24,000 nt of DNA from assembly GCA_045606105.1 (NCBI GenBank), contig JAZURI010000003.1, positions 129,647 through 153,646 of the forward strand, given 5' to 3'. Position 1 is the stretch's first letter. The number at the start of each line of letters is the position of its first letter. Of the stretch, positions 23-22,688 are shown in pieces. The notes below the pieces were generated by a model. The model did not search any database and was not told the origin of the DNA. It was given only the letters and a program-made list of their open reading frames with translations. The stretch is from Spirochaetia bacterium (GTDB lineage Bacteria; Spirochaetota; Spirochaetia; CADAEX01). A program made the position numbers and the translations under genes.

Positions 23-574
23 ATGGAGTCTGCATATGTTCCGGGAAACATCATATCATTCCACGGCTTTGCCTCCACCGGCAAGAACAGGATCGGCAGG
101 GCTGTTGCCGGAAAGCTGGGTATCCCTTTCATAAGGCTGGATGATGAGATAGAGAAGGAAACCGGCCGGGAAATAATTGATATCATCGAGGAGGAGGGGA
201 CAGAGGTTTTTGTCTCCTGTGAAAGAAAAATCCTTGAAAGAATCATTGAAAGGGGAGAACGTGTTGTTCTGTCCTGCGGAAGCGATACCCTTTTCTCTTC
301 GGAAAACAGGGAACTGCTGAAGCGTTATTCCTGTCCTGTATGGCTGGTGGCAAATTCGGAGCTTATACTCAAGAAAAGATTTTTTCTCTCATACAAGCCT
401 GTGGAGGGGGAAAGCATGATAGATGCGGTAAACAGGCTTTATGAAACCAGACGGATAAATTATGCCGGTTTGTCGGAGCTCATTGTCAGGAGCGATATTG
501 CGGATACCGAAAAAACGGCAGAAAAAATTGTAAACGAGCTGTCGGCAATGACCGAAAAATATTCATCACGATAA
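23..574 (+). CDS. aroK: shikimate kinase-like P-loop kinase
   Basis: 183-aa ORF. N-terminal Walker-A-like 'GFASTGKNRIG' followed by 'IPFIRLDDEIE..TGREI.DI', which matches the size and layout of shikimate kinases. Walker A reads GK-N rather than GK-S/T. The ORF begins close to the window edge. Confidence 0.55.
   Translation: MESAYVPGNIISFHGFASTGKNRIGRAVAGKLGIPFIRLDDEIEKETGREIIDIIEEEGTEVFVSCERKILERIIERGERVVLSCGSDTLFSSENRELLKRYSCPVWLVANSELILKKRFFLSYKPVEGESMIDAVNRLYETRRINYAGLSELIVRSDIADTEKTAEKIVNELSAMTEKYSSR
196..206 (+). repeat. GGGGACAGAGG motif copy (in aroK-like CDS, read as G-T-E)
   Basis: Exact 11-mer. Codons are gaG GGG ACA GAG Gtt. Confidence 0.95.
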
Positions 575-775
575 TCTCTTACCGTCCAGCAGTCCGAAAA
601 GCTGCCCTCTCCCGCAGTAACGGTTACAGTAGCCCTTTGTTCCCGATACAACGGAAATGATCAGAGGGACAAAGAAGCATACAAGGCCGGCCCATGCAAA
701 AAGTATATTGAAGAATCCCAGAGTCAGGTAAATCAGCGATACAATCCACAGATAATCATACCAATGCTTTTTCAT
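566..775 (-). CDS. small two-TM membrane protein with C-x3-C motif (function unknown)
   Basis: I take the start at the internal Met 'MKKHWYDYLWIVSL...', whose ATG overlaps the ferredoxin stop (ATGA at 772-775). Two hydrophobic segments are followed by 'YCNRYCGRGQLF'. The 3' end overlaps the convergent aroK-like gene by 9 nt. Confidence 0.45.
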   Translation of the reverse strand: MKKHWYDYLWIVSLIYLTLGFFNILFAWAGLVCFFVPLIISVVSGTKGYCNRYCGRGQLFGLLDGKRLS

Positions 776-978
776 ACTGCTGTCTCCTTCAGGGTAATGA
801 CACCGGCAGGACATTCCAGGGCACAACGGCCGCATCCTATACATTTTTCATGATCTACCTGAGCCATGATCCCTCTGAAAACCTGAATTGCCCCCTTGGG
901 ACAGACTTTCATGCAGCATCCGCAGGCAACACACTCTTTCTGATTTACATAAGCTTTTCTTTTTTTTCTCTCTGCCAT
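772..978 (-). CDS. 2x[4Fe-4S] ferredoxin
   Basis: 68-aa ORF with two cluster motifs, 'CVACGCCMKVCP' and 'CIGCGRCALECP' (C-x2-C-x2-C-x3-CP). Confidence 0.85.
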   Translation of the reverse strand: MAERKKRKAYVNQKECVACGCCMKVCPKGAIQVFRGIMAQVDHEKCIGCGRCALECPAGVITLKETAV

Positions 979-1034
979 ATAAGAACAATAACAGGTTTCC
1001 GATTTTTTTCAGTGATATTGTTACAAAGCTTCAA

Positions 1035-4548: not shown

Positions 4549-5844
4549 ATGATTGTATGCAAGTTTGGCGGAAGCTCTGTAGCAGATGCCGTACAGATTT
4601 CCAAGACACAGAATATCGTGAAGGGCAATCCTGACAGAAAGATTGTTGTTGTATCGGCTCCCGGCAAAAGGGATAAGGAAGATGACAAGATTACGGATCT
4701 GCTTTATAAATGTCACAATCTTGCAAGCAATGACAAGCCTATAGATTCCGCATGGGAAAAGATCAGGAACCGCTATCTCCAGATTGCGGCAGTTCTCGAT
4801 ATCACATGGGATCTGAAGGAGGAGCTTGATTATATTGAAAACAAGCTTGCCGGAAAATGCAGCTCAGACTATGCAGCAAGCCGCGGGGAATATCTTAATG
4901 CCAAGCTTATCTCACTTTATTTCGGATTTGAGTTCCTGGACAGTGCAGAGGTGATAAGACTGGGGGACAGAGGTGAGATTCTTCCTGAGACCTACGACCT
5001 TATAAGGGAGGCTGTGGATCCTGACAAATATTATGTGGTACCTGGCTTCTACGGACTGGGACCTGACGGAGAGATAAAGACCTTCTCCAGAGGCGGCTCC
5101 GACATTACCGGAAGTATCTATTCAAAGGCCCTTGAAGCGGATATATATGAAAACTGGACCGATGTTTCGGGTATCTATACCACAGACCCTAGAGTTGCAG
5201 AGGCCGCAAGACCTATCGACGACATTACATACAGGGAAATGAGGGAGATGGCATATCTCGGAGCAAACGTGTTCCATGAAGAGGCCATTGCACCGGCCCG
5301 CCAGGCAGACATTTCCATCAATATCAAGAATACAAACGCACCCGGGGACAGAGGAACCTTCATCAATTCCGTCAGGGATGCATCAAAGCAGGCGGTAGCA
5401 GGAATTGCCGGCAAGAGACATTTCCGCCGTATTACTGTTGAAAAATATAAGCTTGAGGACATGCACGAGCTTCATTTTGAGCTCAAGAAGGCACTTGGTG
5501 CTCTCGGTCTTATCATTGCATTCGAGCTTAAGGGAATTGATACCCTCAATTTCTATGTTCAGGATGAAAAGATGATTGACTGGGATTCCTTCGGTGAAAA
5601 GCTCAAGGCTGATCTCGATGTGGAGAAGGTGGTATATTCCGAGGACCTGGCTGTAATCGGAATAATCGGCGAAGGACTTGCCGTTTCATTCTCACATGTG
5701 CTTGAGATTCTCAATGCTGTCGGAAAAGAGGGCATCAACATAGAAAACATCAACTGCGGTGGTTCACCTATTTCTGCCGTTCTTGTTATCCGTGACGAGG
5801 ACTATGTAAAGGCAATGAATGTCATTGCTTCCGTTATTGCCTGA
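4549..5844 (+). CDS. lysC: aspartate kinase
   Basis: 431 aa. N-terminal 'KFGGSSVA' amino-acid-kinase motif, 'VVVSAPGK', 'FSRGGSD.TG' and a C-terminal ACT-like region. RBS 'caggag' lies upstream of the ATG. Confidence 0.9.
   Translation: MIVCKFGGSSVADAVQISKTQNIVKGNPDRKIVVVSAPGKRDKEDDKITDLLYKCHNLASNDKPIDSAWEKIRNRYLQIAAVLDITWDLKEELDYIENKLAGKCSSDYAASRGEYLNAKLISLYFGFEFLDSAEVIRLGDRGEILPETYDLIREAVDPDKYYVVPGFYGLGPDGEIKTFSRGGSDITGSIYSKALEADIYENWTDVSGIYTTDPRVAEAARPIDDITYREMREMAYLGANVFHEEAIAPARQADISINIKNTNAPGDRGTFINSVRDASKQAVAGIAGKRHFRRITVEKYKLEDMHELHFELKKALGALGLIIAFELKGIDTLNFYVQDEKMIDWDSFGEKLKADLDVEKVVYSEDLAVIGIIGEGLAVSFSHVLEILNAVGKEGINIENINCGGSPISAVLVIRDEDYVKAMNVIASVIA
4963..4973 (+). repeat. GGGGACAGAGG motif copy (in lysC, read as G-D-R-G)
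   Basis: Exact 11-mer. Codons are GGG GAC AGA GGt. Confidence 0.95.
5344..5354 (+). repeat. GGGGACAGAGG motif copy (in lysC, read as G-D-R-G)
   Basis: Exact 11-mer. Codons are GGG GAC AGA GGa. Confidence 0.95.
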
Positions 5845-5851: not shown

Positions 5852-7096
5852 ATGAAAAAAACAGCTGCAGCCATACTGTTTCTGCTCATGCTTGCGGTTT
5901 TTCCCACATGGGGGGACGGTATCATGCCGCCTGAGCCGGTGCTCAACTGCAGGGCTGCTGTCCTTATGGACTATGATACGGGGACAGTGCTTTTCAGCAA
6001 GAACCCCTCGGCTGAAATTCCCCCGGCCTCAATGACAAAACTCATGACCTCCTTTCTCCTTTTCGAAAAAATAGAGAGGGGAGAGCTTTCACTTGATGAT
6101 ATCTATACCGTTTCCGAAAAGGCCGATTTCAAGAATGCACCACCCAGGTCGTCACTGCTTTTTCTGGAACGGGGACAGAGGTTGACAATAAAGGAGCTGG
6201 TTACAGGGCTTCTTGTGGTTTCCGGCAATGATGCGGCCACGGCAGTGGCAGAGCTGGTTGCAGGGGGACGGGAGGAGTGTGTCGCCCTGATGAACAAACG
6301 GGCCGCGGAGCTTGGGTTTCCTTCCTTTCATTTTGAGGATGTATCCGGGTACGACAGCCGCAACAAGGTCAATCCCCTTGATTTCTGCCGTTTCTGCAGG
6401 CTCTACATAAAAACCTGCTACGATTATTTTGCCGACATAGTGGGAATCGAAACATTGGGATATCCCGAAAGAAAGCATCTGGCAGGGACCAAGCCTACCT
6501 ACGGAAAAATTGTCCAGAACAATTCCAACGAGCTGATAGGGCGGTACGACGGAGTCGATGGCATTAAAACAGGTTATATAGATGAATCCGGCTATAATGT
6601 GGCCCTGACAGCCCGGAGGGACGGAATGAGGCTTGTGGCCGTGATAATGGGAATCGATGCCTCCAAACCTTCGGAGGGAAAGCTTCTCAGGGGAATAGAC
6701 GGATCTGCCCTGATTACCTATGGCTTCAGCACTTTCAGAACCTTCAGACCGGCTATGGGTGAAAAGCTTGAGATTCCGGTTTATCACTGCAGCAGCAAAA
6801 AAGCGGAAATAGTTCCGGTAATAGATACACCTGTCACTGTCCCTTACAGCCGTCTCGGAGAGCTGGTTTTCAATGTGAGCATGAAACAGGATATGAAGGG
6901 GGAAATGGCTGCGGGGACAGAGGTTGGCCGCTATACCCTGACTCTCGGGGACAGAGGTTTGGCAGAAGGTCCCATGGTTCTCAGTGAAGGGACAGAAAAA
7001 TGTTCACCTTTGCAGAATATCCCCGAATTCTTCCGCTTCCTGTTTAAAAAGTCAGTTGCAGAAAGGAAAATATCTGCTATAATATCACAGTTATGA
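5852..7096 (+). CDS. D-alanyl-D-alanine carboxypeptidase (PBP5/6-type serine peptidase)
   Basis: SxxK 'SMTK', SxN 'SGND' and KTG 'KTGY' motifs occur in the correct order. I chose the start at 'MKKTAAAILFLLMLAVFPTWG' (signal peptide) rather than the ORF-track start at 5819. Confidence 0.9.
   Translation: MKKTAAAILFLLMLAVFPTWGDGIMPPEPVLNCRAAVLMDYDTGTVLFSKNPSAEIPPASMTKLMTSFLLFEKIERGELSLDDIYTVSEKADFKNAPPRSSLLFLERGQRLTIKELVTGLLVVSGNDAATAVAELVAGGREECVALMNKRAAELGFPSFHFEDVSGYDSRNKVNPLDFCRFCRLYIKTCYDYFADIVGIETLGYPERKHLAGTKPTYGKIVQNNSNELIGRYDGVDGIKTGYIDESGYNVALTARRDGMRLVAVIMGIDASKPSEGKLLRGIDGSALITYGFSTFRTFRPAMGEKLEIPVYHCSSKKAEIVPVIDTPVTVPYSRLGELVFNVSMKQDMKGEMAAGTEVGRYTLTLGDRGLAEGPMVLSEGTEKCSPLQNIPEFFRFLFKKSVAERKISAIISQL
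6171..6181 (+). repeat. GGGGACAGAGG motif copy (in carboxypeptidase CDS, read as R-G-Q-R)
   Basis: Exact 11-mer. Codons are cGG GGA CAG AGG. Confidence 0.95.
6913..6923 (+). repeat. GGGGACAGAGG motif copy (in carboxypeptidase CDS, read as G-T-E)
   Basis: Exact 11-mer. Codons are gcG GGG ACA GAG Gtt. Confidence 0.95.
6947..6957 (+). repeat. GGGGACAGAGG motif copy (in carboxypeptidase CDS, read as G-D-R-G)
   Basis: Exact 11-mer. Codons are GGG GAC AGA GGt. It shares the 14-mer cGGGGACAGAGGTT with the copy 34 nt upstream. Confidence 0.95.
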
Positions 7097-9548: not shown

Positions 9549-10508
9549 ATGAAAAACAAGATTTACGAATTCATAAAACTCAGATATATTGCTCCTGTAA
9601 CTTCCGTTGTTATCATAGTTATCCTTTTTGCAATCACAGGCGTAAAGGGTGGTTTTAACCTGGGAATCGACTTCCTGTCAGGTCTCAACATGCGTGTTCA
9701 GATTGCTCCGTCTGCAGTAAAGACTGATATTTCAGATATGAGAAATGTTCTTTCAGCAGCAGGTGCCGCTCAGATTCAGGTAATCGGAGATGCGGCTGAT
9801 CAGGAATTCAGCATCAGGGTAAGAGAAACCGGAGAGCAGACCGGTGCTGCGGTATCCGGCAAGGTTACAGACCTTCTTGAGAAGAAATTCGGTGCTGCAA
9901 ACGTTACAGTAAAACAGTCAGAGTTTTCAGGTCCTAGATTTTCACAGGCTTTGAGTCTTCAGTCTGTTTCACTTATCTGTTTCTCACTGGCACTCATGCT
10001 TGTATACATCTGGATCAGATTCAGGCTTGCATATGGTATATCCTCAATCCTGGCCCTGACACACGATGCCCTGATTATGGTTGGTGTAATCGGTGCACTT
10101 CAGCTTGAAGTTGATGTAACAACAATTGCGGCCGTGCTTACAATTATCGGTTATTCCCTCAATGCTACAATCGTTATCTTTGACAGAGTAAAGGAGAATG
10201 TTATACTGCTCAAGGGAAATCCGCTCAAGCATATCCTTAACACAAGTATTTCACAGTCACTTTCAAGAGGTGTCATCACATCCCTGACCACATTGATTGC
10301 AGTACTTGCCATTTATCTGTTCGGTGTGGGAGTTATCAAAAACTTCGCATTCAACCTGATAATCGGTATCTGTGTGGGAACCTATTCCTCATTCTTCATC
10401 GCCCCTTCTATCCTCTATATCTGGATGGCTAAGGTTCAGAAGATCAAGTTCGAGGGAGATGCCGCTCCTGTACAGGCTCAGCCTGAGACAGCAGCAGAAA
10501 CAAAGTAA
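9549..10508 (+). CDS. secF: protein translocase subunit SecF
   Basis: 319 aa with 'GIDF.GG' near the N-terminus, 'HD..I..G' and 'IGYS.N..IV.FDR..E' motifs. It lies immediately after secD. Confidence 0.92.
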   Translation: MKNKIYEFIKLRYIAPVTSVVIIVILFAITGVKGGFNLGIDFLSGLNMRVQIAPSAVKTDISDMRNVLSAAGAAQIQVIGDAADQEFSIRVRETGEQTGAAVSGKVTDLLEKKFGAANVTVKQSEFSGPRFSQALSLQSVSLICFSLALMLVYIWIRFRLAYGISSILALTHDALIMVGVIGALQLEVDVTTIAAVLTIIGYSLNATIVIFDRVKENVILLKGNPLKHILNTSISQSLSRGVITSLTTLIAVLAIYLFGVGVIKNFAFNLIIGICVGTYSSFFIAPSILYIWMAKVQKIKFEGDAAPVQAQPETAAETK

Positions 10509-10601: not shown

Positions 10602-10675
10602 GGGCCTATAGCTCAGTTGGTTAGAGCCCTCGACTCATAATCGAGTGGTCCCTGGTTCAAGTCCATGTGGGCCCA
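10602..10675 (+). tRNA. tRNA with CAU anticodon, either elongator Met or more likely Ile2 (lysidine-modified)
   Basis: 74-nt cloverleaf. The acceptor stem pairs GGGCCTA with TGGGCCC. The D-arm is 'AGCTCAGTTGGTTAGAGC'. The anticodon loop is CT-CAT-AA with CAT at 10636-10638. The T-arm is 'GGTTCAAGTCC'. No CCA is encoded. C4-G69 and C5-G68 match known TilS determinants of tRNA-Ile2, so I lean towards Ile2. It has no initiator features. Confidence 0.9.
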
Positions 10676-10677
10676 GA

Positions 10678-10708
10678 AATCTCCTGTCTTGCAGGAGATT
10701 TTTTTTTT
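10678..10708 (+). terminator. rho-independent terminator after the tRNA
   Basis: 9-bp stem: aatctcctg (10678-10686) pairs with caggagatt (10692-10700). The loop is 5 nt and the T-run extends to 10708. Confidence 0.85.
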
Positions 10709-10730
10709 GCTCTTTTGCGGTGAGTTGCGT

Positions 10731-10741
10731 GGGGACAGAGG
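10731..10741 (+). repeat. GGGGACAGAGG motif copy (intergenic, upstream of RAYT)
   Basis: Exact 11-mer in the context TTGCGTGGGGACAGAGGATATTGC. Confidence 0.95.
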
Positions 10742-10762
10742 ATATTGCTTGGTGATTGCTTG

Positions 10763-10773
10763 GGGGACAGAGA
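10763..10773 (+). repeat. motif variant GGGGACAGAGA (intergenic, upstream of RAYT)
   Basis: Context is TTGCTTGGGGGACAGAGATATTTG. It equals the upstream copy with one G deleted. A 9-nt direct repeat ATTGCTTGG (10744-10752 and 10755-10763) links the two copies. Confidence 0.85.
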
Positions 10774-11300: not shown

Positions 11301-11331
11301 AAATCTGACATGGATTAATTAAATTAAAGTT

Positions 11332-12123
11332 ATGAACCGATTGGAGCTTCTTGATAAGGTTTATAATGAATATCATCGGGAGGAGTACATATATCCTGAT
11401 CCTCTGTCCCCGGTATTATCCTATAAAAACGCCGATGACAGGGAAGTTGCAGCTATTATTGCATCTTCTCTTGCTTTAGGACGGGTTGATCTTATCCTTA
11501 AAGCGGTAAATTCTGTGCTTTTACCACTCGGCTCTCATCCGGCTTCTGAACTTGATTCTCTCTCGGTGTCGGATTTGAGAGAAATTTATCATGATTTCGT
11601 TTATAGATTTTTTAAAACCGATGAAATAACCGGTTTTTTATATGCAATTAAGGTGATACGCGGGGACAGAGGAAGCCTCCAAGCCCTTTTTACCACAAAT
11701 TACACCCAAGGAAAGGGCATTACAAGCGGTATTACAGCTCTCAGCAATGAAATTGCCAGGATTTCAGAGGGTAAATCGGCTATGTTGCTCCCATCTCCTG
11801 AAAAAGGCAGTGCCTGTAAAAGGGTTAATCTTTTTCTTAGATGGATGGTCCGGCATGATAACATTGATCCGGGAGGATGGTCTGATATAAATACCTGTGA
11901 TTTGTTGGTTCCGGTTGATACCCATATGTATGATATTGCAAAACGTCTCAGGTTTACATCCAGAAAGACTGCAGATTTCAAAACAGCAGTTGAAATTACT
12001 GCCGGTTTTGCAGAAATTGTTCCTGAAGACCCTGTAAAATATGATTTTTCACTTACAAGATTGGGAATACATCCTGATCTTGATAAGGAAATATTTAAAA
12101 ATCTTGATTTTAAAGGAGAATAG
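11332..12123 (+). CDS. DUF2400/TIGR02757-family protein (uncharacterised; HhH-glycosylase-like fold by recollection)
   Basis: 263 aa. 'DP...Y....DRE.AA.IAS.LA.GRV', '[12 protein letters not shown]' and 'L..P.DTH' match my memory of the TIGR02757 family. I cannot confirm this without an HMM search. Confidence 0.6.
11401..11411 (-). repeat. GGGGACAGAGG motif copy, inverted (in DUF2400 CDS, read as P-L-S-P)
   Basis: Exact reverse complement CCTCTGTCCCC. It lies 101 nt past the RAYT stop. Codons are CCT CTG TCC CCg. Confidence 0.95.
11662..11672 (+). repeat. GGGGACAGAGG motif copy (in DUF2400 CDS, read as G-D-R-G)
   Basis: Exact 11-mer. Codons are GGG GAC AGA GGa. Confidence 0.95.
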
Positions 12124-12124: not shown

Positions 12125-12280
12125 ATGAAGTATATCTGTAATCTTTGCGGCTATATTTACGATCCTGCAACAGGAGATCCTGACAGTGGAGTCAAAGCTG
12201 GAACAAAATGGGAAAATGTTCCTGCCGATTGGTGCTGTCCTGTTTGCGCAGCATCAAAAGACCAGTTCAGCCCGGCATAA
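12125..12280 (+). CDS. rubredoxin
   Basis: 51 aa from the internal Met '[14 protein letters not shown]...[14 protein letters not shown]'. It has two CxxC pairs and the conserved 'W..VP.DW.CP.C' motif. The ATG begins 1 nt after the upstream stop. Confidence 0.92.
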
Positions 12281-12292: not shown

Positions 12293-12327
12293 GGGGACAG
12301 AGGTTTATCTGATAAACCTCTGTCCCC
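12293..12327. repeat. perfect 35-bp palindrome built from two inverted motif copies (possible terminator or REPIN/DUS-pair-like element)
   Basis: GGGGACAGAGGTTTATC-T-GATAAACCTCTGTCCCC, giving 17-nt arms around one central base. It starts 13 nt after the rubredoxin stop. No T-run follows. Confidence 0.9.
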
Positions 12328-12352
12328 ATGCCTTTCTTTCCCCTTATCTTTG

Positions 12353-12381
12353 TTGACATTCCCATTCCTTTACTCTATTAT
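12353..12381 (+). promoter_or_regulatory. sigma70-type promoter for the gap-pgk-tpiA-secG cluster
   Basis: TTGACA (12353-12358), a 17-nt spacer, then TATTAT (12376-12381). RBS aggaga is at 12405-12410 and the gap ATG is at 12418. Confidence 0.55.
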
Positions 12382-12387
12382 ATATAA

Positions 12388-13425
<1,038 letters not shown>

Positions 13426-13444
13426 TAAAGCTAAGGGTAGGATA

Positions 13445-14626
13445 ATGGTACTCAATACAATCAGGGATGCAGATCTGACAGGTAAACGTGTTCTCATCCG
13501 TGTCGACTTCAATGTGCCTCTCAAGGATGGTATAGTCAAGGATGATACAAGAATCCGTGCGGCTGTTCCTACTATTGAATATATTCTTTCTCAGAAGGGA
13601 ACTTCTGTTGTGGTCATGAGTCATTTCGGTCGTCCTAAGGGACAGAAGAATCCGGAATTTTCCATGGCTCCTATCGGAAAGAGATTCCAGGAGATCATCG
13701 GGCGTCCCGTAAAGGTTGCTTCAGATGTCATCGGTGATGCCGTAGCAGCAGAGGCTTCTGCTCTCAGAGAGGGAGAAATCCTTCTTCTTGAAAATGTCCG
13801 CTTCTATCCTGAAGAGGAAAAGAACGGTACAGAATTTGCCAAGGCACTTGCATCTCTCGGAGATGTTTATGTGAACGATGCTTTCGGTACTGCCCACAGA
13901 GCCCATGCCTCCACAGAGGGTGTTGCCCATTTCCTCCCTGCATATGCCGGATTCCTCATCGAGAAAGAGGTAAAGTTCATGGCTCCTCTTCTTGAGAATC
14001 CGGCTCATCCTTTTGTCGCCATCATCGGCGGTGCAAAGGTTTCCTCCAAGATCGGAGTTCTTCAGTCGCTTCTCAGAACCTGCGATACAATGGTTATCGG
14101 CGGGGGTATGGCCTATACATTCCTCAAGGTACAGGGATACAGTGTAGGTAAGTCTCTCGTGGAAGCTGACTATATCGATACAGCAAAGGCTTTCCTTGAA
14201 GCTGCAGCTGCCAAGAATGTAAAGGTAATCCTCCCGGTTGACCATGTGGTTGCCGCTTCATTTGCAGAGGATGCCGCACCTGAGCTTATCAGCTCTCCTG
14301 ACATTCCTGAAGACAGGATGGGAATGGATGTGGGACCTGAAACCATTGCCCTTATCAAGGAGGCTCTGGCTTCAGCAGCAACTGTTGTATGGAACGGACC
14401 TCTCGGTGTATTCGAGTTTGACAGCTTCGCAAAGGGAACTCTTGAAATTGCCAGATCTGTTGCTGAATGCAGCGGCATTACTGTTGTAGGAGGGGGAGAT
14501 TCTGTAGCGGCTGTAAACAAGTTCGGCCTTGCAGACAGACTCAGCCATGTTTCTACCGGCGGCGGTGCTTCATTGGAATTCCTTCAGGGACTTCCGCTTC
14601 CGGGAATTGTTGCTTTGGAAAAATAG
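13445..14626 (+). CDS. pgk: phosphoglycerate kinase
   Basis: 393 aa with 'RVDFNVP', 'SHFGRPKG', 'GGAKVS.KI' and '[11 protein letters not shown]'. Confidence 0.97.
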
Positions 14627-14634
14627 GGGGATTT

Positions 14635-15390
14635 ATGTCCAGAATCAGATATATCGCAGGTAACTGGAAAATGAACAAGCTTTCAGGCGAAGCAGTTACA
14701 CTTGCAAAGGAAATAGCAGAAGGTGCAAAGGATCTCGGATGCAGAATCATGATCGCACCTCCTTTTACAGCTCTCTCTGAAGTGAGCAAGGTTGTCAGGG
14801 GAACAAATGTTCTTCTCGGTGCCCAGAATATGTCAAATGCCGTTTCAGGTGCATACACCGGAGAGGTTTCACCGGACATGCTTATCGATCTCGGTGTTTC
14901 CGTTGTTATTCTCGGTCATTCCGAAAGACGCACCCTTTACGGAGAAACAGATGCTTTCATCAATTCAAAGGTGAAGCTTGCCCTTGAAAAGGGTCTTGAT
15001 GTGATTCTCTGCGTAGGTGAGACTCTTGCTGAAAGAGAAGCAGGAAAAGCTGCGGAAATTGTATCTTTTCAGGTTGAAAACGGTTTGAAAGATATAAGTG
15101 TTGATTTTATTGAAAAAATTACGGTTGCCTATGAGCCTGTATGGGCTATCGGTACCGGAAAGACAGCAACTGCCGAAGATGCAGAGGCTGTTCATAAGGT
15201 TATCAGGGAAAAGCTTGCTGAAATGTACAGTTCAGAGGCTGCAGAAAAGGTACTTATCCAGTACGGCGGTTCCATGAAGCCTGAAAATGCTGCCGGTCTT
15301 CTTGCAATGCCTGACATTGACGGCGGACTTATCGGCGGTGCAGCCTTGAAAAGCGAAAGCTTTTTGGCTATACTGAAATGTGCTGAATAA
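14635..15390 (+). CDS. tpiA: triose-phosphate isomerase
   Basis: Start taken at 'MSRIRYIAGNWKMN' (ATG at 14635, G-rich RBS just upstream) rather than the ORF-track start at 14467. Motifs include 'GHSERR', 'AYEPVWAIGTG' and 'YGGS'. Confidence 0.95.
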   Translation: MSRIRYIAGNWKMNKLSGEAVTLAKEIAEGAKDLGCRIMIAPPFTALSEVSKVVRGTNVLLGAQNMSNAVSGAYTGEVSPDMLIDLGVSVVILGHSERRTLYGETDAFINSKVKLALEKGLDVILCVGETLAEREAGKAAEIVSFQVENGLKDISVDFIEKITVAYEPVWAIGTGKTATAEDAEAVHKVIREKLAEMYSSEAAEKVLIQYGGSMKPENAAGLLAMPDIDGGLIGGAALKSESFLAILKCAE

Positions 15391-15404
15391 TTAAAGAGGT
15401 AAAT

Positions 15405-15731
15405 ATGGGAATTTTAAGTATTATTTTGCTTGTTTTGTTTGTTATTGCATCACTTCTGCTTATTCTTCTTGTTCTTGTGCAGGATGATCAGGGTGACGGT
15501 ATCGGAGGGATCTTCGGAGGCGCAAGCTCAACTCCTTTCGGTTCAAAATCAGGAAATGTCCTCACAAAGTTTACATCTATTCTGGCGGCATTCTTCCTTA
15601 TCCTTTCTCTCGGTCTGGCATGGGTCAACAGAAGTACTGAACAGGACGACCTTCTCGGTTCTGTAAAAAGCGCTGAAGCAGCTGAAGCAGCTGAATGGTG
15701 GAATGAATCTGCCGAACAGGGAAATAAATAA
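15405..15731 (+). CDS. secG: preprotein translocase subunit SecG
   Basis: 108 aa with two TM segments flanking the Gly-rich 'GDGIGGIFGGASS' loop. It sits in the conserved position after tpiA. The acidic Ala/Glu tail contains a short 9-nt tandem repeat. Confidence 0.85.
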   Translation: MGILSIILLVLFVIASLLLILLVLVQDDQGDGIGGIFGGASSTPFGSKSGNVLTKFTSILAAFFLILSLGLAWVNRSTEQDDLLGSVKSAEAAEAAEWWNESAEQGNK

Positions 15732-15746
15732 TCCGGGGTTTCTGTC

Positions 15747-16763
15747 ATGAAAAAGTTTCTTCTTGCGGTTTTCCTTACATTAGTGTGCCTCGGTGACGGT
15801 TTTGCTCAGGAATCCCTTGATTCAAAGGTTGCCATAGTAAATCTCACCAAGCCTGAAATCATATCCAGAAAACAGCTGGATCAGACTGTCAAGCTTCTGC
15901 AGGCTACCGGAATCAACAAAAGCGAACAGGAAATTCTTGAAGTCATGATTGACGATGTTCTTCTTAAACAGGGAACAGAAAAAGAAGGAATTAATATTTC
16001 AGAGGCTGAGATTATTTCAGCTCTCAGAAAGGAAGTAGGAGCTTCAGGCCAGGCTGCAACCGATGACCAGCTCAAGCAGTTCGTTGAACAGCGGATGCAG
16101 GTAAGCTGGAACGTTTATGCCGACAGAAGCAAGACTACTCTGGGAATCCAGAGATATATCAGGAAGGTAAAGGGAAGCAAGCTTTCCAATATCCCTGCAC
16201 CGTCTCAGCCTGAAATCCAGCGTTTCTACGACAGCAACTCAAAGCAGTTCTTCGTTCCTAAGACAGTTACACTGGACCATATCTATGTGGACACCAGATC
16301 CCTTACTGCCGACGAAAAGGCAAAGGCACTGGAGCGTATAAATGAATACAGCACCAAGATAAAGAAGGATTCAAAGGAATTTGACAAATATGTTGAATTC
16401 TCCGATGATTCCGCTTCCAAGTACAACAACGGAAGATTCGGTACTCTCCGTATCGACGATGTCAACAGGAAGAAATTCATGGGCGAAGATTTCTTTACTG
16501 CAGTTTTTGCAATGAACAAGGGCGATATCAGCTCTGTCATCACATCCAATGTAGGATATCACATTGTAAGGGTTGCAGATGTTTCCGAACCAAGACTTCT
16601 CGGTATCCATGAAAAGATTTCCGAAAATCAGAAGCTTACCGTAAGCGATACAATCAAGCAGTATCTCACAGCCCAGAAGCAGGACATGATTTTCAAGGAA
16701 TGTGTAAAAGAGGTCACAGAAGATCTCAGAAAAAAAGCTGACATCAAATATTTTCTGAAATAA
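15747..16763 (+). CDS. secreted/lipoprotein parvulin-type peptidyl-prolyl isomerase (SurA/PrsA-like)
   Basis: Signal peptide 'MKKFLLAVFLTLVCLG'. The C-terminal PpiC-type domain has 'F..VF.M.KGDIS.V..S..GYHIVRV'. Confidence 0.75.
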   Translation: MKKFLLAVFLTLVCLGDGFAQESLDSKVAIVNLTKPEIISRKQLDQTVKLLQATGINKSEQEILEVMIDDVLLKQGTEKEGINISEAEIISALRKEVGASGQAATDDQLKQFVEQRMQVSWNVYADRSKTTLGIQRYIRKVKGSKLSNIPAPSQPEIQRFYDSNSKQFFVPKTVTLDHIYVDTRSLTADEKAKALERINEYSTKIKKDSKEFDKYVEFSDDSASKYNNGRFGTLRIDDVNRKKFMGEDFFTAVFAMNKGDISSVITSNVGYHIVRVADVSEPRLLGIHEKISENQKLTVSDTIKQYLTAQKQDMIFKECVKEVTEDLRKKADIKYFLK

Positions 16764-16766
16764 GCT

Positions 16767-17186
16767 ATGGGTGCAATGCATAAGGCAAGGGTTCTTGCAT
16801 TTCAGATAATTTTCAGCTGGGATTTTGAGAGGCGGGCTGTACCCGAAAATCTTTTTGACTCGGTAAGGAATCTTTCCAACGAGGAGTTTGATATTGCTTC
16901 CGAAACATATGTCAAGCTTACTGTCTGCGGTACTATTGAAAATATCGATAAAATAGACAGCATGATCAGGGAGCATCTCCGTAACTGGAAATTCGACCGT
17001 ATTGCCAAGGTAGATCTGGCTATTCTCCGTCTCAGCGTATACGGGCTTCTTTTCCAGAAAGATACGGATGGGAAGATTATTATCAATGAGGCCGTGAAGA
17101 TTGCCCAGGAATACGGAAATGATGATTCCTATAAATTTATAAACGGTCTTCTGGATTCTATTTACAAGAAAAATGATAAGACTTAA
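16767..17186 (+). CDS. nusB: transcription antitermination factor NusB
   Basis: 139 aa with 'AR..AFQ..F', 'W...R....D..ILR...YEL-like (LRLSVYGLLF)' and 'INE.V..A..YG......F.NG.LD'. Confidence 0.88.
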   Translation: MGAMHKARVLAFQIIFSWDFERRAVPENLFDSVRNLSNEEFDIASETYVKLTVCGTIENIDKIDSMIREHLRNWKFDRIAKVDLAILRLSVYGLLFQKDTDGKIIINEAVKIAQEYGNDDSYKFINGLLDSIYKKNDKT

Positions 17187-17919
17187 ATCAAAGAAAGATA
17201 TTTCCGGTATCAGGGATGCCGGTGCCATTCTTGCAGAAACACTGGACAAGATAAAAAAAGAGCTTCAGGCTGGAATGAAGACCTCTGACATTGATGATAT
17301 TGCCAGGGAGTATATCATTTCCAGAAAGGCCAGACCGGCTTGTCTCGGTTATATGGGCTATCCTGCCAGTATCTGTGTTTCGGTTAACGAAGAGGTAATC
17401 CACGGTATTCCCGGTAAAAGGGTAATCAGGGAAGGTGATATTGTAAGCTGCGATCTCTGTGTGGATCTCAAAGGTTATATTGCTGACAGTACCGTTACCA
17501 TTCCTGTTGGAAAAATCTCTCCTCAGGCCGAAAAGCTTCTTAAGGTTACCGAAGAGTCCCTTTATCTGGGTATCGAGAAGGCAGTGGCCGGAAATCGTGT
17601 CATGGATATTTCCAGATCGGTTTTCATTCATGCCAAGAAACATGATTTAGGTGTTGTTCGTGATTACTGCGGTCACGGAGTAGGCTTTGATATGCATGAG
17701 GAGCCTGCTGTTCCCAACTACATTTTCAGAGGGGCAAATCCTCATCTCAGGGAAGGAATGGTTATTGCCATCGAGCCTATGATTACATTGGGATGTGACG
17801 ATATTGATGTTCTTGATGATGACTGGACCGTAGTTACAGCTGACGGTTCCCTTGCAGCTCATTTTGAACATACCGTAGCCATCCACGACGGTTATGCCGA
17901 AATACTTACAAAACTATGA
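17173..17919 (+). CDS. map: type I methionine aminopeptidase
   Basis: 248 aa with 'GYPASICVSVNEEV.HGIP', the metal ligand context 'D.....GY..D' and 'GHG.G...HE.P'. 'EPM' and 'HFEHT' are also present. It overlaps the nusB end by 14 nt. Confidence 0.93.
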   Translation: MIRLKSKKDISGIRDAGAILAETLDKIKKELQAGMKTSDIDDIAREYIISRKARPACLGYMGYPASICVSVNEEVIHGIPGKRVIREGDIVSCDLCVDLKGYIADSTVTIPVGKISPQAEKLLKVTEESLYLGIEKAVAGNRVMDISRSVFIHAKKHDLGVVRDYCGHGVGFDMHEEPAVPNYIFRGANPHLREGMVIAIEPMITLGCDDIDVLDDDWTVVTADGSLAAHFEHTVAIHDGYAEILTKL

Positions 17920-18521
17920 AAGAATTCCTCGATTACTATGTTGTCAGAAACAATGCCATAAAGCTTGCTCACAGGATGTTCAGTGAGGGCTTTGTTCCCG
18001 ATATCATCTATGTACCTCTCAGAGGAGGTGCCTATCTGGGAAATGTCATCAGCGAATACTACAAGATAGCTCTCAGGAATACAGACCATAAGCCGGTCCG
18101 TTATGCTGCTCTGGTGGCAGGCTCCTATTCCGGAGTAAAGAACCACGGCGATGTTGTTATACAGGGCTGGACCTATCCGCCCGAAAAAGTGAATCCTGAC
18201 GAAAAGATTCTTTTTGTGGATGATATCTTTGATTCCGGAAGGACCATCAATTTCATTATAAAGCATCTTATTTCTCTGGGGCTGAAACGGGAAAATATCG
18301 TCATTGCTGTCCATGACTACAAGATTCAGGAATATAAGAACGAAATGCCTGAAATTCTTCCCGACTATTACTGCAGAAAGCATGTCATCAAGAGGGAAGA
18401 GGACGAAATCTGGATCAATTATCAGAGCCACGAGCTTGTGGGGCTTTCAAAGGATGAGCTTGAAAACCATTTCTATAATGAAGATCCTACTCTCCGGGAA
18501 GCTCTTTCGATTCTGGAATAA
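17916..18521 (+). CDS. phosphoribosyltransferase family protein (purine PRT-like)
   Basis: 201 aa with the PRPP-binding motif 'ILFVDDIFDSGRT'. The start overlaps the map stop (ATGA). Confidence 0.7.
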   Translation: MKEFLDYYVVRNNAIKLAHRMFSEGFVPDIIYVPLRGGAYLGNVISEYYKIALRNTDHKPVRYAALVAGSYSGVKNHGDVVIQGWTYPPEKVNPDEKILFVDDIFDSGRTINFIIKHLISLGLKRENIVIAVHDYKIQEYKNEMPEILPDYYCRKHVIKREEDEIWINYQSHELVGLSKDELENHFYNEDPTLREALSILE

Positions 18522-19876
18522 ACCATTTTTTTCATCGTGATTATGAAGCACACATACAGGGCCAGGAAGGTTATGGTCCAGGATATGCTGTATACTGCAT
18601 AAATTGTCTCCAGCTTATGGAATGCCGGTATCTGAAACACGGTAAAAACCCAGAGAATCCTGAAGGCACAGGCTCCCAGCAGCGATGTTACGGTAGGGAT
18701 TATGGAGTGGCCCATTCCCCTCAGTGTACCTGATATGATTTCCATCATTCCACACAGGAAATAAGGAAGACAGAGATATTTCAATCTCATCATTGCAGAT
18801 GATATTACATCCGGATCTGTGGAATAGAGTCCTGCTATCTCGTTTCCGAAGAATACCACCGCCCCTCCCACCGAGGCACCTGTCACTATTACACAGGCCA
18901 GAGCCGTAAGCTGTACCCTGATTATCCTTCTGAAGTTTCCGGCTCCCATGTTCTGGCCCGTAAAGGAGATGGTGGCCTGATAGAAGGCGTTCATGGCAAA
19001 ATAGACAATATATTCGATATTCATGGCAGCTGCGTTTCCTGCCACCACTATTGCTCCGAAAAGATTGATTGAGGAGAGGATAACCACATTGGAGAGGGAA
19101 AATACCATGCCCTGGATTCCGGCCGGTATTCCTGTTCTCATTATCATGTAAAGCTGGGCTCTGTGGAATCTGATTCTGCTGATAACCAGGTTTACGGCTC
19201 CTTTGTCCCTGATCATGCAGCTGACTATGAGACAGCTGGCTACAGCCTGGGAAATGACTGTGGCCAGGGCAACTCCTGCCACATCCCACCTGAACTTTAT
19301 TACGAAAAGCAGGTTGAAAAGAACATTGATGATTCCGGCAATGATAAGGAACATGAGAGGTCTTCTGGTATCGCCTACAGCTCTCAGCACAGCGCTTCCG
19401 AAATTATATACGATGGTGGCTATTATTCCGAGGAAATAGATACGGAGATAGAGGGTTGCAAGATCGAGAATCTCTTCCGGAGTGCTCATCCATATGAGAA
19501 AAATCCTGGCAAACAGCGTACCGAAAACGGTAAGTATGATACCGCCCGCAATACTGAGGGCCATGGTGGTATGTATTGTCCTGCTGAGCTCTTCACTCTT
19601 TCTTGCGCCGTAATATCTTGCAGTGACTATATTTGCACCGATGGAGAGACCTACGAACAGATTGACCATCAGGTTTATGAGGGAGGAATTGGCACCTACG
19701 GCTGCCAGGGAATTGCTTCCTGCAAAGCGTCCTACCACTATGATGTCGGTGGCAGTGAAGAGTAACTGAAGGATGGATGAACACATCAACGGTAAAGCAA
19801 ACAGGATTATTTTCTTTAAAATCGGACCATTGCACATGTCGATTTCATAACTTTTTCCCATAAGAAAATTTTCCAA
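18473..19876 (-). CDS. MATE family efflux transporter
   Basis: 467 aa with 12 predicted TM segments. The N-terminal 'GPILKKI..FALP......LQ.LF...D...VGRF.G' is typical of MATE/NorM proteins. The true start may be the Met at 19861. The 3' end overlaps the convergent PRT gene by 49 nt. Confidence 0.85.
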   Translation of the reverse strand: MENFLMGKSYEIDMCNGPILKKIILFALPLMCSSILQLLFTATDIIVVGRFAGSNSLAAVGANSSLINLMVNLFVGLSIGANIVTARYYGARKSEELSRTIHTTMALSIAGGIILTVFGTLFARIFLIWMSTPEEILDLATLYLRIYFLGIIATIVYNFGSAVLRAVGDTRRPLMFLIIAGIINVLFNLLFVIKFRWDVAGVALATVISQAVASCLIVSCMIRDKGAVNLVISRIRFHRAQLYMIMRTGIPAGIQGMVFSLSNVVILSSINLFGAIVVAGNAAAMNIEYIVYFAMNAFYQATISFTGQNMGAGNFRRIIRVQLTALACVIVTGASVGGAVVFFGNEIAGLYSTDPDVISSAMMRLKYLCLPYFLCGMMEIISGTLRGMGHSIIPTVTSLLGACAFRILWVFTVFQIPAFHKLETIYAVYSISWTITFLALYVCFIITMKKMVYSRIERASRRVGSSL

Positions 19877-19933
19877 CTAACTTTCTGATTTGTCAATAGT
19901 TGTATAATAAAGTATTTGATGATATTTTAAGGT

Positions 19934-20695
19934 ATGGAAAAATATGCTGTTGTCGGCAGCGGCTCTTGTGGTAATTCATACATTTTCAAAACGGCGGAGT
20001 CAGGCTTTGTTGTGGATAACGGCTATTCCTTTTCAGAATTTTCCCGCCGTATAAAGTCCATGGATTTTGATATCAGAGATATAAGATACATTTTTCTTAC
20101 CCATAATCACAAGGATCATATATCAGGTATGGAAATTCTTTCCAGAAAGCTGCAGATTCCGGTTTTCGTAGCTGAAAATCTTGATCTTTCAAGCAGTCTT
20201 AAGGAGGGCTTTTTCAGGACTGTAGAGGTCACTCCGGGCAATACCTACAGGGTGGACGATTTTACATTTACCGTTTTTTCCACTACTCATGATGCACCCT
20301 GTTCCGTGGGATACAGCTTTGCCACATCGGAATCCAGATATACTATAATTACAGATACGGGAAAAACCTCCGAGCTCATGAGAAGCCTTGCGGATCAGTC
20401 AGATGTGCTTTTCCTGGAGGCAAACTATTGTCCCGAGATGCTGAAAAAAGGTCCCTATCCCTATTTCCTGAAAAAAAGGATTTTTTCGGATCACGGCCAT
20501 CTTTCAAACCATGATGCGGTCGATTTTATCAAAAAACTTGATTCAGGTAAAAAAAGAAGTATATACTTATGTCATATATCAGATAAGAATAATTCTCCCG
20601 AAAGGGTAAAGGAAGTCTTTGACTCTGAATTTTCGGGAGATCTGGATTATCATATTTGTAAACGAGGTATTCCCGTTTTGGGAAAAAGGAGTTGA
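19934..20695 (+). CDS. MBL-fold metallo-hydrolase
   Basis: 253 aa with the 'THNHKDH' (HxHxDH) motif and a later 'HDA...G' and 'DHGHLSN'. Confidence 0.8.
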   Translation: MEKYAVVGSGSCGNSYIFKTAESGFVVDNGYSFSEFSRRIKSMDFDIRDIRYIFLTHNHKDHISGMEILSRKLQIPVFVAENLDLSSSLKEGFFRTVEVTPGNTYRVDDFTFTVFSTTHDAPCSVGYSFATSESRYTIITDTGKTSELMRSLADQSDVLFLEANYCPEMLKKGPYPYFLKKRIFSDHGHLSNHDAVDFIKKLDSGKKRSIYLCHISDKNNSPERVKEVFDSEFSGDLDYHICKRGIPVLGKRS

Positions 20696-21255
20696 TCATG
20701 GATAAAAGAATTCTTGTTCTTCTTGCAGAGGGCTGCGAGGAAATGGAGGTTGTGATTCCTTCCGATCTGGCTGTAAGGGCAGGTCTTGATGTTGTAATGG
20801 CAGGAATAGAAGGAATCGATATAACAGGTTCCCACGGGATTTCCCTTATTGCAGATTGCGAGATCGTTGATATTGCAGATGAAATCTTTGATGCCGTAAT
20901 CATTCCGGGAGGAATGCCGGGTGCCGAGAACATTGCAAACAATGAGGTTGCCATGGAGGTAATCCAGAGGCATGCAGACAAGGAGAAGCTTATCTGTGCC
21001 ATCTGTGCCGCGCCCGGTGTAGTTCTGGGAGATACCAGAATTCTTGATGACCGTATGGTTACCTGCTATCCAGGCTTTGAAAAGCATTTCAACCGTACTG
21101 TAACCTATATCGAGGATAAGGTTGCTGTCAGCGGAAATGTCATTACTGCAAAGGGCCCGGGAGCAGCTTTCCTGTTCGGCCGTGAAATTCTCAAGGCTCT
21201 TCTGGGAGAGGTTGTGGCAGACAAGGTTCTGCAGGGAACTTTCTATTCATGCTGA
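20692..21255 (+). CDS. DJ-1/PfpI family protein
   Basis: 187 aa with 'ILV.LA.G.EE.E' at the N-terminus and the nucleophile elbow 'AICAAP'. It overlaps the upstream stop (ATGA). Confidence 0.85.
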   Translation: MIMDKRILVLLAEGCEEMEVVIPSDLAVRAGLDVVMAGIEGIDITGSHGISLIADCEIVDIADEIFDAVIIPGGMPGAENIANNEVAMEVIQRHADKEKLICAICAAPGVVLGDTRILDDRMVTCYPGFEKHFNRTVTYIEDKVAVSGNVITAKGPGAAFLFGREILKALLGEVVADKVLQGTFYSC

Positions 21256-22688
21256 GTATAAACGGCAAAAGCTTTTATCTTGTTGGGATAAAGGGTACAG
21301 GGCTTTCTGCCTTTGCCGAGCTTCTGCTTAAATCGGGAGCCAAGGTTACGGGAAGCGACACAGCGGAGAAATTCTATACCGACGAGGTGCTCCGTTCCCA
21401 GGGGATAAGCTTCAGGGAGGGTTTTTCTTCCGAAAATATCCCTGCCGGTATCGATTATGTAATTTATTCCTCTGCCTATAATCCGGCTGAGAATCCTGAC
21501 CTTGCGGAAGCGGTCAGGAGAGGTATTCCCATTATGGAGTACACAAAGGCACTGGGGGCTTTTTCTGAGGCTTACGATGCCGGGGGAATTGCCGGTGTCC
21601 ATGGCAAGACTACAACAACTGCAATTACTGGAACACTGCTGAAGGCCCTTGATGCACCGGCTGCAGTTCTGGCCGGTTCTGCGGTATCCAACTTCGACGG
21701 CCGTTCCACCTTTGTGAACGGAAACCGTTTTTTTGTGGCTGAAACCTGCGAATACAAGCGCCATTTCATGTCATTCCGGCCGTCCAGGATAATAGTTACA
21801 AGCATCGAGCCGGATCACCTGGATTTCTTTCCCACATATGCCGATATTTTCAGCGCATTTGTGGATTATGCCTTGCTGCTGCCGGAAAACGGGGAGCTGA
21901 TTTACTGTGCCGATGACAGCGGATGCCGTGAGCTGGCTGCCGTTATCAGGGAAAAAAGAGCCGATATAGTACAGATTCCTTACGGATTCACTGCAGAAGG
22001 GGATTACAGGATTACATCTTCCGGAATCAGGGAAAGCCGTAACTGCTTTACATTGGCAGGCTTTGATACGGAATTTGCCCTGAGGATACCGGGAGAGCAT
22101 ATTGTTCTTGATTCTGCCGCCGCATTGGCCATGACAGTTTCCATCCTTAAGAAATGGAAAGGGGAGCCGGGGACAGAGGAACTGGAAAAAATAAGGAACG
22201 GCTTTGAGGAGTTCAGAGGAAGCAAGAGACGCAGCGAAATTCTCGGTACTGCCGGAGGAATCCTGTTCATGGACGATTATGCCCATCATCCCACAGCCAT
22301 AAGACTGACACTTGAGGGAATCAGGAGCTTTTATCCGGGAAGGAAGCTGGTGGTGGATTTCATGTCCCATACCTATTCCAGGACCGAAGGACTTCTTGAG
22401 GAATTTGCCTCTTCTTTCGGGGCTGCGGATGAGGTTATCCTGAACAATATATATGCTTCGGCCCGTGAAAGGAATACGGATTCCGATCTGGACAGCCGTT
22501 TTTACCGGGCCCTGTGCCGGAATCACAATAATGTAAAGTATTTTCCGAAGCCTGCCGACGGCTTTGATTATCTTAAAACACATTTACAAAGGGACCACAT
22601 ATTCATTACTATGGGTGCTGGAGATAACTGGACTGTGGGAAAAATGCTGTATGACTATTTTTCCTGCAAAAAAGAGGCTTTAACATGA
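21249..22688 (+). CDS. murC: UDP-N-acetylmuramate--L-alanine ligase
   Basis: 479 aa with 'GIKGTGLSAFAELLLKSGAKVTGSD' Rossmann-like N-terminus, P-loop 'GVHGKTTTTA', 'D.YAHHPT' and 'GAGD'. An Mpl-type paralogue cannot be fully excluded. Confidence 0.82.
   Translation: MLSINGKSFYLVGIKGTGLSAFAELLLKSGAKVTGSDTAEKFYTDEVLRSQGISFREGFSSENIPAGIDYVIYSSAYNPAENPDLAEAVRRGIPIMEYTKALGAFSEAYDAGGIAGVHGKTTTTAITGTLLKALDAPAAVLAGSAVSNFDGRSTFVNGNRFFVAETCEYKRHFMSFRPSRIIVTSIEPDHLDFFPTYADIFSAFVDYALLLPENGELIYCADDSGCRELAAVIREKRADIVQIPYGFTAEGDYRITSSGIRESRNCFTLAGFDTEFALRIPGEHIVLDSAAALAMTVSILKKWKGEPGTEELEKIRNGFEEFRGSKRRSEILGTAGGILFMDDYAHHPTAIRLTLEGIRSFYPGRKLVVDFMSHTYSRTEGLLEEFASSFGAADEVILNNIYASARERNTDSDLDSRFYRALCRNHNNVKYFPKPADGFDYLKTHLQRDHIFITMGAGDNWTVGKMLYDYFSCKKEALT
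22169..22179 (+). repeat. GGGGACAGAGG motif copy (in murC, read as G-T-E)
   Basis: Exact 11-mer. Codons are ccG GGG ACA GAG Gaa. Confidence 0.95.

Follow-up and report, generated by a model that had tools for sequence, protein, structure and literature searches.

REP-associated tyrosine transposases (RAYTs; REP, repetitive extragenic palindrome) are encoded by about a quarter of bacterial species, and both their function and the way in which their repeats multiply are unsettled, with current models based on extragenic hairpins (REP/REPIN) that move as pieces of DNA. Systems of this kind are reportedly also the subject of studies by Nunvar (2010) and Ton-Hoang (2012). The REP/REPIN-RAYT literature compared here is that of Bertels and Rainey 2011 (PMC3116915) and Messing 2012 (PMC3479197). 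A further group, the TIRtrons or TIRYT, consists of tyrosine transposase genes flanked by inverted repeats with GGGGWSAS, some with moderately abundant families (Di Nocera et al. 2013, PMC3733652); TIRYT were treated under subclass 2.1 by Quentin et al. 2018 (PMC6006769) and are named in only two papers of the literature searched. Here, a 24,000 nt stretch of a Spirochaetia genome (the window; GenBank assembly GCA_045606105.1, contig JAZURI010000003.1, positions 129647 to 153646) was examined, in which an 11-nt word, GGGGACAGAGG, recurs in and between genes and a RAYT gene is located at 10827–11300. Judged from sequence comparisons, the word is fairly likely to be the cognate sequence of this RAYT/TIRYT-class HUH nuclease, forming its inverted repeats and a dispersed family in RAYT-carrying lineages. 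The genes of the window and their named homologues likewise point to Spirochaetia as its host group. Statements about whole genomes are extrapolated from stretches of 24–38 kb.

As in TIRtrons, inverted repeats bracket a RAYT-like Y1 HUH gene, the repeat core GGGGACAG (GGGG-A-C-A-G) fits GGGGWSAS, and further single and dimeric copies of the repeat occur elsewhere in the genome. However, the published terminal inverted repeats are described as long, whereas the unit here is 11–14 nt and occurs at 0.1–1 copy per kb, about two thirds of the copies are intragenic, in-frame replacements, and the window protein is short (157 amino acids, aa) and lacks the C-terminal helix-turn-helix domain. The NHIH and YIxNNP motifs of the window RAYT are nearer to subclass 2.4 than to subclass 2.1 in a by-eye comparison with Table 1 of Quentin et al. 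2018, which is not a phylogeny.

The REP/REPIN-RAYT systems resemble the arrangement found here in that the RAYT gene is single-copy and inherited vertically (two species have it at the same locus), inverted copies of a genome-wide repeat flank it, this repeat changes along with the RAYT, and intergenic inverted pairs make long hairpins. They differ in that the repeat here has no GT[AG]G head, is non-palindromic as a unit and is without hairpin potential as a singleton, and in that REPs are extragenic whereas most copies here are intragenic and were not made by insertion. Repeat members that lie inside functional genes and leave the frame intact are known from intragenic REPs and Rickettsia palindromic elements (PMC3733652), but those are insertions that add 20–30 amino acids, whereas here codons are rewritten and no residue is added. 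A RAYT/TIRYT with a cognate repeat is already known, while a bare 11–14-nt non-palindromic unit that is mainly intragenic and arises by codon rewriting appears undescribed. As the unit is an 11-mer, it would be missed by surveys that use 16-mers in extragenic flanks (PMC5581495).

The RAYT gene and its flanking repeats

The window carries 14 exact copies of GGGGACAGAGG, 12 on the forward and two on the reverse strand, each at the position and on the strand reported in the original prediction, which had been made from the sequence alone. In 100 dinucleotide-preserving shuffles of the window, the mean number of sites at one mismatch or fewer was 0.37 and the maximum was 3. Three relatives were compared at this locus, namely a sister species (aspartate kinase 88% identical in aa and 80% in nucleotide sequence; 81% nucleotide identity over 14 kb), a 78% relative (L093), and a 77% relative (L090; 77% aspartate kinase identity, synteny over 16 kb). 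The features around the RAYT gene are as follows.

10602–10708, + strand: tRNA-Met gene with terminator hairpin and T-run (10681–10708); the RAYT unit starts immediately 3'
10709–11331, + strand: ~620-bp RAYT unit, present in the window and the sister species, absent at the same site of L090
10731–10743, + strand: left inverted repeat of the RAYT, GGGGACAGAGGAT, 96 nt 5' of the start codon
10763–10773, + strand: second upstream copy, one base deleted, GGGGACAGAG-ATATT
10827–11300, + strand: RAYT gene, 157 aa; HUH motif NHIH, catalytic Tyr in YICNNPV, Shine-Dalgarno sequence AAAGGAG upstream
11301–11313, − strand: probable decayed original right repeat, AAATCTGACATGG, directly 3' of the RAYT stop codon (low confidence)
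11399–11411, − strand: copy ATCCTCTGTCCCC in DUF2400 codons PLSP, forming a 13-bp inverted repeat with 10731

On the basis of its matches, the open reading frame (ORF) at 10827–11300 is a bona fide RAYT. It matched the NCBIfam equivalog REP_Tyr_transpos with 85.9 bits (cut-off 80) and Pfam Y1_Tnp at 3.8e-15, the top PDB match was the TnpA-REP of E. coli (4ER8), and the HUH and catalytic Tyr residues are invariant in the RAYT alignment. Inverted copies of the word bracket the gene, with GGGGACAGAGGAT at −96 and its complement at +98. The variant noted previously at 10763, GGGGACAGAGA, was also found, and as ATATT continues both copies it corresponds to the 10731 unit minus one G. Bracketing recurs at loci L086 and L087, where copies are located at −82 (+) and +1 (−) of the RAYT gene, and likewise at L088; L086 and L087 carry tCCTCTGTCCCC where the window has the decayed AAATCTGACATGG.

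A RAYT orthologue with 61% identity is present twice in the spirochete metagenome-assembled genome (MAG) GCA_024402405.1, where an identical ~625-bp unit, CCTCTGTCCCC-N19-GGGGACAGAGG-70 nt-RAYT-tgat-CCTCTGTCCCC, is found at two unrelated loci. At these loci, each of 20 kb, GGGGACAGAGG numbers 9 and 8 copies, mostly within genes. A link to the RAYT gene, the third option offered in the original prediction, is thus supported by bracketing and co-duplication, and also by the dialects, the proximity and the absence from a syntenic relative described below.

In four independent loci (window 10681–10730; L086 and L087, ~9850–9870; L088, ~6570–6610) the RAYT unit directly follows a Rho-independent terminator hairpin and T-run, suggesting a stereotyped insertion site after a terminator. 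The same placement would suit the reverse relationship, in which the word pre-existed in the host and is the insertion target of the RAYT unit rather than its product, as for insertion sequences that insert into REPs, and so would the location of the window's right-hand copy in pre-existing DUF2400 codons. However, copies at both ends lie inside the duplicated ~625-bp unit, the word is wholly missing from the RAYT-less syntenic relative L090, and the dialects change with the RAYT orthologue, and an insertion target is therefore quite improbable.

L086 and L087 also have a copy within the RAYT gene itself (10081–10091; LLGTEESK), which resembles the published in-frame REP copies in tnpA-REP genes of subclass 2.4.

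The word and its dispersed copies

The remaining copies in the window are listed below.

196–206, + strand: shikimate kinase gene, sense, frame GTE; missing at the orthologous site of the sister species
1227–1237, + strand: Rce1-like gene, antisense; window-specific, the sister having its own copy elsewhere in that gene
4963–4973, + strand: aspartate kinase gene, GDRG; 11/11 kept in the sister, no indel
5344–5354, + strand: aspartate kinase gene, GDRG; kept in the sister, no indel
6171–6181, + strand: D-Ala-D-Ala carboxypeptidase gene, frame GQR; kept in the sister, 2-mismatch remnant in the 78% relative
6913–6923, + strand: carboxypeptidase gene, frame GTE; kept in the sister
6947–6957, + strand: carboxypeptidase gene, GDRG; window-specific, the sister reading GGGGATGAAAA
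7182–7192, + strand: conserved 84-aa ORF, GTE; kept in the sister
11662–11672, + strand: DUF2400 gene, GDRG; kept in the sister
12293–12327, both strands: perfect 35-nt palindrome of two inverted copies, just 3' of a rubredoxin gene
22169–22179, + strand: murC, frame GTE; missing from the murC of the sister

The reported look-alikes, GGGGACAGTG at 5980 and GGGACAGAAA at 6989, were both present. When sub-words were counted, the true unit proved to be the 11-mer, as GGGGACA was found 14+2 times and nearly always within the full word. The flank bias that had been described also held in the window, with a preceding C in 9/14 copies, a following A or T in 14/14 and a T next in 10/14, and among 35 non-redundant copies pooled from four genomes the preceding base was a pyrimidine in 28, the following base was A or T in 33 and the next was T in 26. 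The extended form in the pooled copies is therefore Y-GGGGACAGAGG-W-T, in which three further biased positions flank a sharply bounded 11-nt core. No conservation of the flanks was seen outside −1 to +2, indicating that the copies are not fragments of a larger multicopy element, and this possibility was ruled out.

Pooling 72 kb from four genomes gave 38 exact copies against 0.03 expected and 8 one-off copies against ~1 expected, an exact to one-off ratio of ~5:1, and the excess had disappeared at two or three mismatches. The ten intragenic copies counted previously all lie in Pfam-supported genes (shikimate kinase, Rce1-like, aspartate kinase with two, S11 carboxypeptidase with three, DUF2400 with two, and MurC), though the total rises to 11/14 with the copy at 7182 in the conserved 84-aa ORF. 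In a pooled 74-kb sample, 26/39 copies were within ORFs of at least 120 aa. All three frames are used by the intragenic copies, giving GDRG, GTE and GQR, and the word is therefore a feature of the DNA; a protein motif was ruled out, both strands being in use as well.

The 11-mer is not self-complementary and contains neither GTAG nor GTGG. Among the matches listed in a literature search, the exact 11-mer and its complement gave no bacterial match, only eukaryotic primer or promoter matches. The previous statement that no signal with this sequence has been described therefore holds for the exact 11-mer, but not for its first eight bases, which fit the published GGGGWSAS of TIRYT inverted repeats (PMC3733652).

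Comparison with relatives at the same locus

In the sister species, a RAYT gene (160 aa) is found at the same place, in the order SecF-tRNA-Met-RAYT-DUF2400. Seven of the window copies (4963, 5344, 6171, 6913, 7182, 10731 and 11662) are kept 11/11 at orthologous positions, and an eighth conserved copy is located just past the right end of the window in a mevalonate diphosphate decarboxylase-like gene (L001:3105). The sequences flanking the conserved copies differ, third codon positions of the aspartate kinase gene are 55% identical, and synonymous sites are near saturation between the two species. Six window copies are lineage-specific and two copies are the sister's own, and these lineage-specific copies on both sides indicate turnover of the motif. 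At the site of the 12293–12327 palindrome, both arms of the sister hairpin have GAGC/GCTC in place of GAGG/CCTC, a two-sided change that preserves the stem. Polymorphism of motif sites among strains was looked for in 13 near-identical contigs (98.3–99.8%), and all copies checked in L001, L002, L078, L079 and L085 match the positions of the window copies.

The 78% relative has near-motifs at all three orthologous sites that are covered (1, 3 and 2 mismatches), consistent with decay or with incomplete build-up; at the site of 4963 it reads GGAGACAGAGG. No copy of the word, nor any other over-represented word, was found in the 16 syntenic kb of the 77% relative, and its locus has no RAYT, DUF2400 following directly after the tRNA-Met terminator. 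The check for lineage-specificity that had been proposed thus gave seven copies kept in the sister, decayed copies in the 78% relative and none in the 16 kb of the 77% relative.

Origin of the copies within genes

Codon alignments of five genes with L090 revealed no indel at any of the ten intragenic copies. In the aspartate kinase gene, GGGGAGCAGGG (GEQG) at the site of 4963 and GAAGAATCAGG (EESG; 6/11 bases different) at that of 5344 each correspond to GGGGACAGAGG (GDRG) in the window. Likewise, the 11399–11411 copy was created in situ, where L090 has CCGCTTGCCCC and the sister has CCTTTATTCCC, the replacement of CCGCTTGCCCC by CCTCTGTCCCC changing PLAP to PLSP. The gene-internal copies are thus in-frame replacements of existing codons, without change of length, and not insertions; insertions like the Rickettsia palindromic elements were ruled out by the same alignments.

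Singletons were also considered as hidden half-hairpins. This was ruled out, as they fold no better than random positions (−14.8 versus −13.6 kcal/mol, p = 0.14) and only inverted pairs fold.

Related words at other RAYT loci

The dialects, i.e. the related words found near other RAYT genes, were examined at further loci. L088 (RAYT 62% identity) has GGGGACAGAGCA in six copies over 9.3 kb, and L175 (RAYT 64% identity) has GGGACAGAGCT in five copies over 7.4 kb, all of them intragenic and in the sense orientation. A set of 80 metagenome loci was collected by RAYT homology alone (33–58% identity), and at many of the longer ones the 9- to 11-mer found most often, trivial words aside, was related to the motif and had unconserved flanks, as with GGGACAGAGCT (as many as 32 copies in 20 kb), GGGACGGAGG/C, GGGACGGAGC, GGTGTCAGAGC and GGGGACAGACC (19 copies in 20 kb). 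One host of GGTGTCAGAGC encodes a type IX secretion system (T9SS) sorting domain, indicating a Bacteroidota-like host. As related words occur across phyla at loci chosen by RAYT homology, and GGGGWSAS is already published, the link between the RAYT clade and this family of words is independent of host phylogeny and is well supported.

Motif density at 25 loci fell from 3.8/kb within 250 bp of the RAYT gene to 0.2–0.28/kb at 4–10 kb. When clusters were collapsed, 22 loci had 57 copies at 0.5–4 kb and 19 at 4–7.5 kb (p = 1.5e-5; sides 14 versus 3). A kilobase-scale halo around the RAYT in the window's own lineage was set aside, as it holds for pooled RAYT loci but not for the GGGGACAGAGG group alone.

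The principal rival explanation is a DNA uptake sequence (DUS, or uptake signal sequence, USS), since every feature of the pattern except the RAYT link fits it. A competence receptor would favour the word, uptake and recombination would enrich it, and the RAYT unit would carry copies for its own spread. In common with the DUS of Neisseria and the USS of Pasteurellaceae (PMC3630211, PMC2817400), the word is dense, uses all three frames, is created by substitution at variable protein positions, has dialects in relatives and forms an inverted pair behind a gene. Its weak flank preference, the conservation of copies between species and the ~5:1 ratio of exact to one-off copies are equally uptake-like, and orientation and frame biases within genes are reported for USS/DUS (PMC2346458, PMC2817400). 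The analogy drawn in the original prediction is therefore sound as a description of the pattern (dense, intragenic, in all frames, with an inverted pair) but not as its explanation, as the motif is linked to a single gene family (RAYT) and enriched around its gene, varies with the orthologue and is missing from a close syntenic relative. While DUS/USS are family-wide, no copy of the word was found in the 16 kb of the 77% relative and only decayed copies in the 78% relative, so that here the motif is present or absent among close relatives. Moreover, loci collected by RAYT homology across phyla, including that of the Bacteroidota-like host, carry related words concentrated at the RAYT gene, the words track the transposase family, and for this transposase family GGGGWSAS ends have been published from several phyla (PMC3733652). 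An uptake sequence is therefore considered unlikely.

The exact 11-mer was also encountered in two MAGs of other phyla. In an Opitutaceae MAG the 11-mer lies within ~95-nt palindromic elements and a RAYT homologue is encoded, and a Bryobacterales MAG has the 11-mer in hairpins. In these loci (L013, L023, L027, L029, L051, L057, L058 and L070 in the Opitutaceae MAG; L011, L020, L022, L036, L045, L048, L066, L069 and L073 in the Bryobacterales MAG) it forms the inner stem of ~50–95-nt palindromic repeats, one per locus, with conserved outer parts (e.g. TGACAGGGGAAT-GGGGACAGAGGAAT...), and in L070 the RAYT homologue is 1.5 kb from the palindromic repeat. These cases and those in Rectinema were also yielded by a scan of contigs for inverted pairs. 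Most matches of that scan were unrelated hairpin or tandem arrays (Dysgonamonadaceae, Coriobacteriales and Pyrinomonadaceae) and were set aside. L014, L028 and L043 (Dysgonamonadaceae MAGs) have ~42-nt-period tandem arrays of GGGGACAGAGGC...CCTCTGTCCCC hairpins, similar to BIME or REP arrays. The GGGACAGAGCT dialect of L124 also forms tandem arrays with 30–39-nt spacing (6850–6973, 12464–12640, 15584–15762 and 16963–17079), which yield spurious ORF calls; no such arrays were seen in the window's lineage.

In Rectinema subterraneum (L059, 1–4465) a second over-represented word, GGGGACGGAG(C/G), is present in 4–5 copies alongside GGGGACAGAGGTT, the pattern that would be expected if two RAYT/repeat pairs share one genome. 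A sequence assigned to an archaeon (L065; JAKAJY010000078.1, 'archaeon isolate WY4.bin39') is near-identical to L059 over ~1.9 kb and has bacterial-type genes, and is probably a spirochete contig that was mis-binned into an archaeal MAG.

Orientation and distribution

Among independent intragenic copies of GGGGACAGAGG and two close dialects, the sense to antisense ratio was 31:6. The 12:2 orientation bias reported for the window is real, the 12 copies being on the strand with positive GC skew, but a preference for the sense strand is the more apt description. Pooled copies followed the local GC skew 27:11, and orientation thus follows the gene strand at least as well as the skew; the Chi/KOPS option of the original prediction is not supported. 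A replication-polar signal, either Chi (RecBCD/AddAB) or KOPS/SRS (FtsK/SpoIIIE; FtsK-orienting polar sequences and SpoIIIE recognition sequences), would be in keeping with this skew and with the G-rich word. However, in minus-strand genes 4/7 copies are oriented against the skew, and the ratio in L086 is 5:4 despite positive skew. The word also specifies 11–14 bases and reaches ~1 copy per kb at most, which makes it far longer and denser than these 5–8-nt signals, whose action would leave the RAYT link, the dialects and the absence of the word from a close relative unexplained. Such a signal is highly improbable.

As coding strands are purine-rich, sequences 3–4 mismatches away from the motif already have a sense bias of ~2:1, and composition of the coding strand explains much of the bias, perhaps not all. 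The 31:6 ratio, the conservation of copies despite saturated synonymous sites and the complementary word in the 3' flank of the RAYT gene could also be taken to indicate a word acting in RNA, or the binding site of a host factor, selected through a host protein or small RNA independently of the RAYT. Against this are the compositional bias, the lack of sense bias in more distant dialect groups (23:36 and 22:15) and the absence of any Rfam match to the motif, the tRNA being the sole match of the scan; RAYT bracketing and enrichment would also remain unexplained. Selection of this kind is accordingly very unlikely.

Copies are unevenly distributed. Of those in the window, 13 fall within the first 12.3 kb and a single one in the 11.7 kb that follow, and the sister has 9 copies in 16.3 kb followed by 2 in 21.9 kb (0.09/kb). 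Over stretches of 24–38 kb the density is 0.1–1 per kb, in and between genes, and the lowest density is still ~200 times chance. A 9.8-kb part of the window (12328–22168) is without the motif, and the same gap is found in the sister species. It includes gap, pgk, tpi, secG, nusB, map and genes for a PpiC-type rotamase, a phosphoribosyltransferase, a MATE transporter, a beta-lactamase-fold protein and a DJ-1 family protein, and may reflect stronger constraint on these proteins.

Other features of the window

A 51-aa rubredoxin gene, below the usual ORF threshold, lies between DUF2400 and gap (12125–12280); the sister species shares it and L090 lacks it. On the 3' side of the motif hairpin, gap has a sigma-70-like promoter (TTGACA at 12353). 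The longest triose-phosphate isomerase ORF (14467–15390) starts ~170 nt inside pgk, and the true start is probably an internal ATG at MSRIRYIAGNWKMN.

Discussion

Several observations weigh against GGGGACAGAGG being the cognate sequence of the RAYT. The features of its pattern, the RAYT link apart, fit uptake sequences equally well. The right-hand repeat in the window sits within a conserved gene (DUF2400) and may be coincidental, and the original right end looks decayed. A ~7-kb Rectinema stretch has six copies and no RAYT on that stretch, the GGGGACAGAGG group taken alone has no clear distance gradient past 0.5 kb (8 near, 6 far), and the correlation between RAYT and motif is one of loci, also for L090, L093 and Rectinema, and not of genomes. 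In addition, we know of no HUH chemistry that rewrites 11 bases in place, and the drive proposed below is, to our knowledge, without precedent.

That the RAYT causes the rewriting is inferred. A RAYT could bind its G-rich word where DNA is transiently single-stranded, either on the template of the lagging strand or on the non-template strand of genes being transcribed. Once bound, it would tilt the repair or short-patch templated conversion of look-alike sites in favour of its own site. The outcome would be a molecular drive that is strongest near the RAYT gene and is analogous in outcome to uptake bias. Copies might be kept by continued drive or by a benefit to the host, and intergenic inverted pairs could act like REPINs or like terminator-type hairpins. 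It is possible, though doubtful, that a RAYT-class HUH nuclease in this way also drives the in-place rewriting of the chromosome, housekeeping codons included, into its 11–14-nt word. If so, hyper-abundant genomic words would have a third way of arising, in addition to transposition and biased uptake, and a domesticated transposase would shape protein sequences (the GDRG, GTE and GQR patches).

The RAYT repeat of this lineage is long-persisting, diversifies into dialects as the RAYT does, and decays where the system has apparently been lost. If this is confirmed genome-wide, the species and its sister, together with the 78% and 77% relatives, would form a natural series in which the making and keeping of such a repeat can be followed. 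Surveys of extragenic 16-mers or of hairpins overlook part of the RAYT repeat world, and an uptake signal should not be the default reading of hyper-abundant intragenic words.

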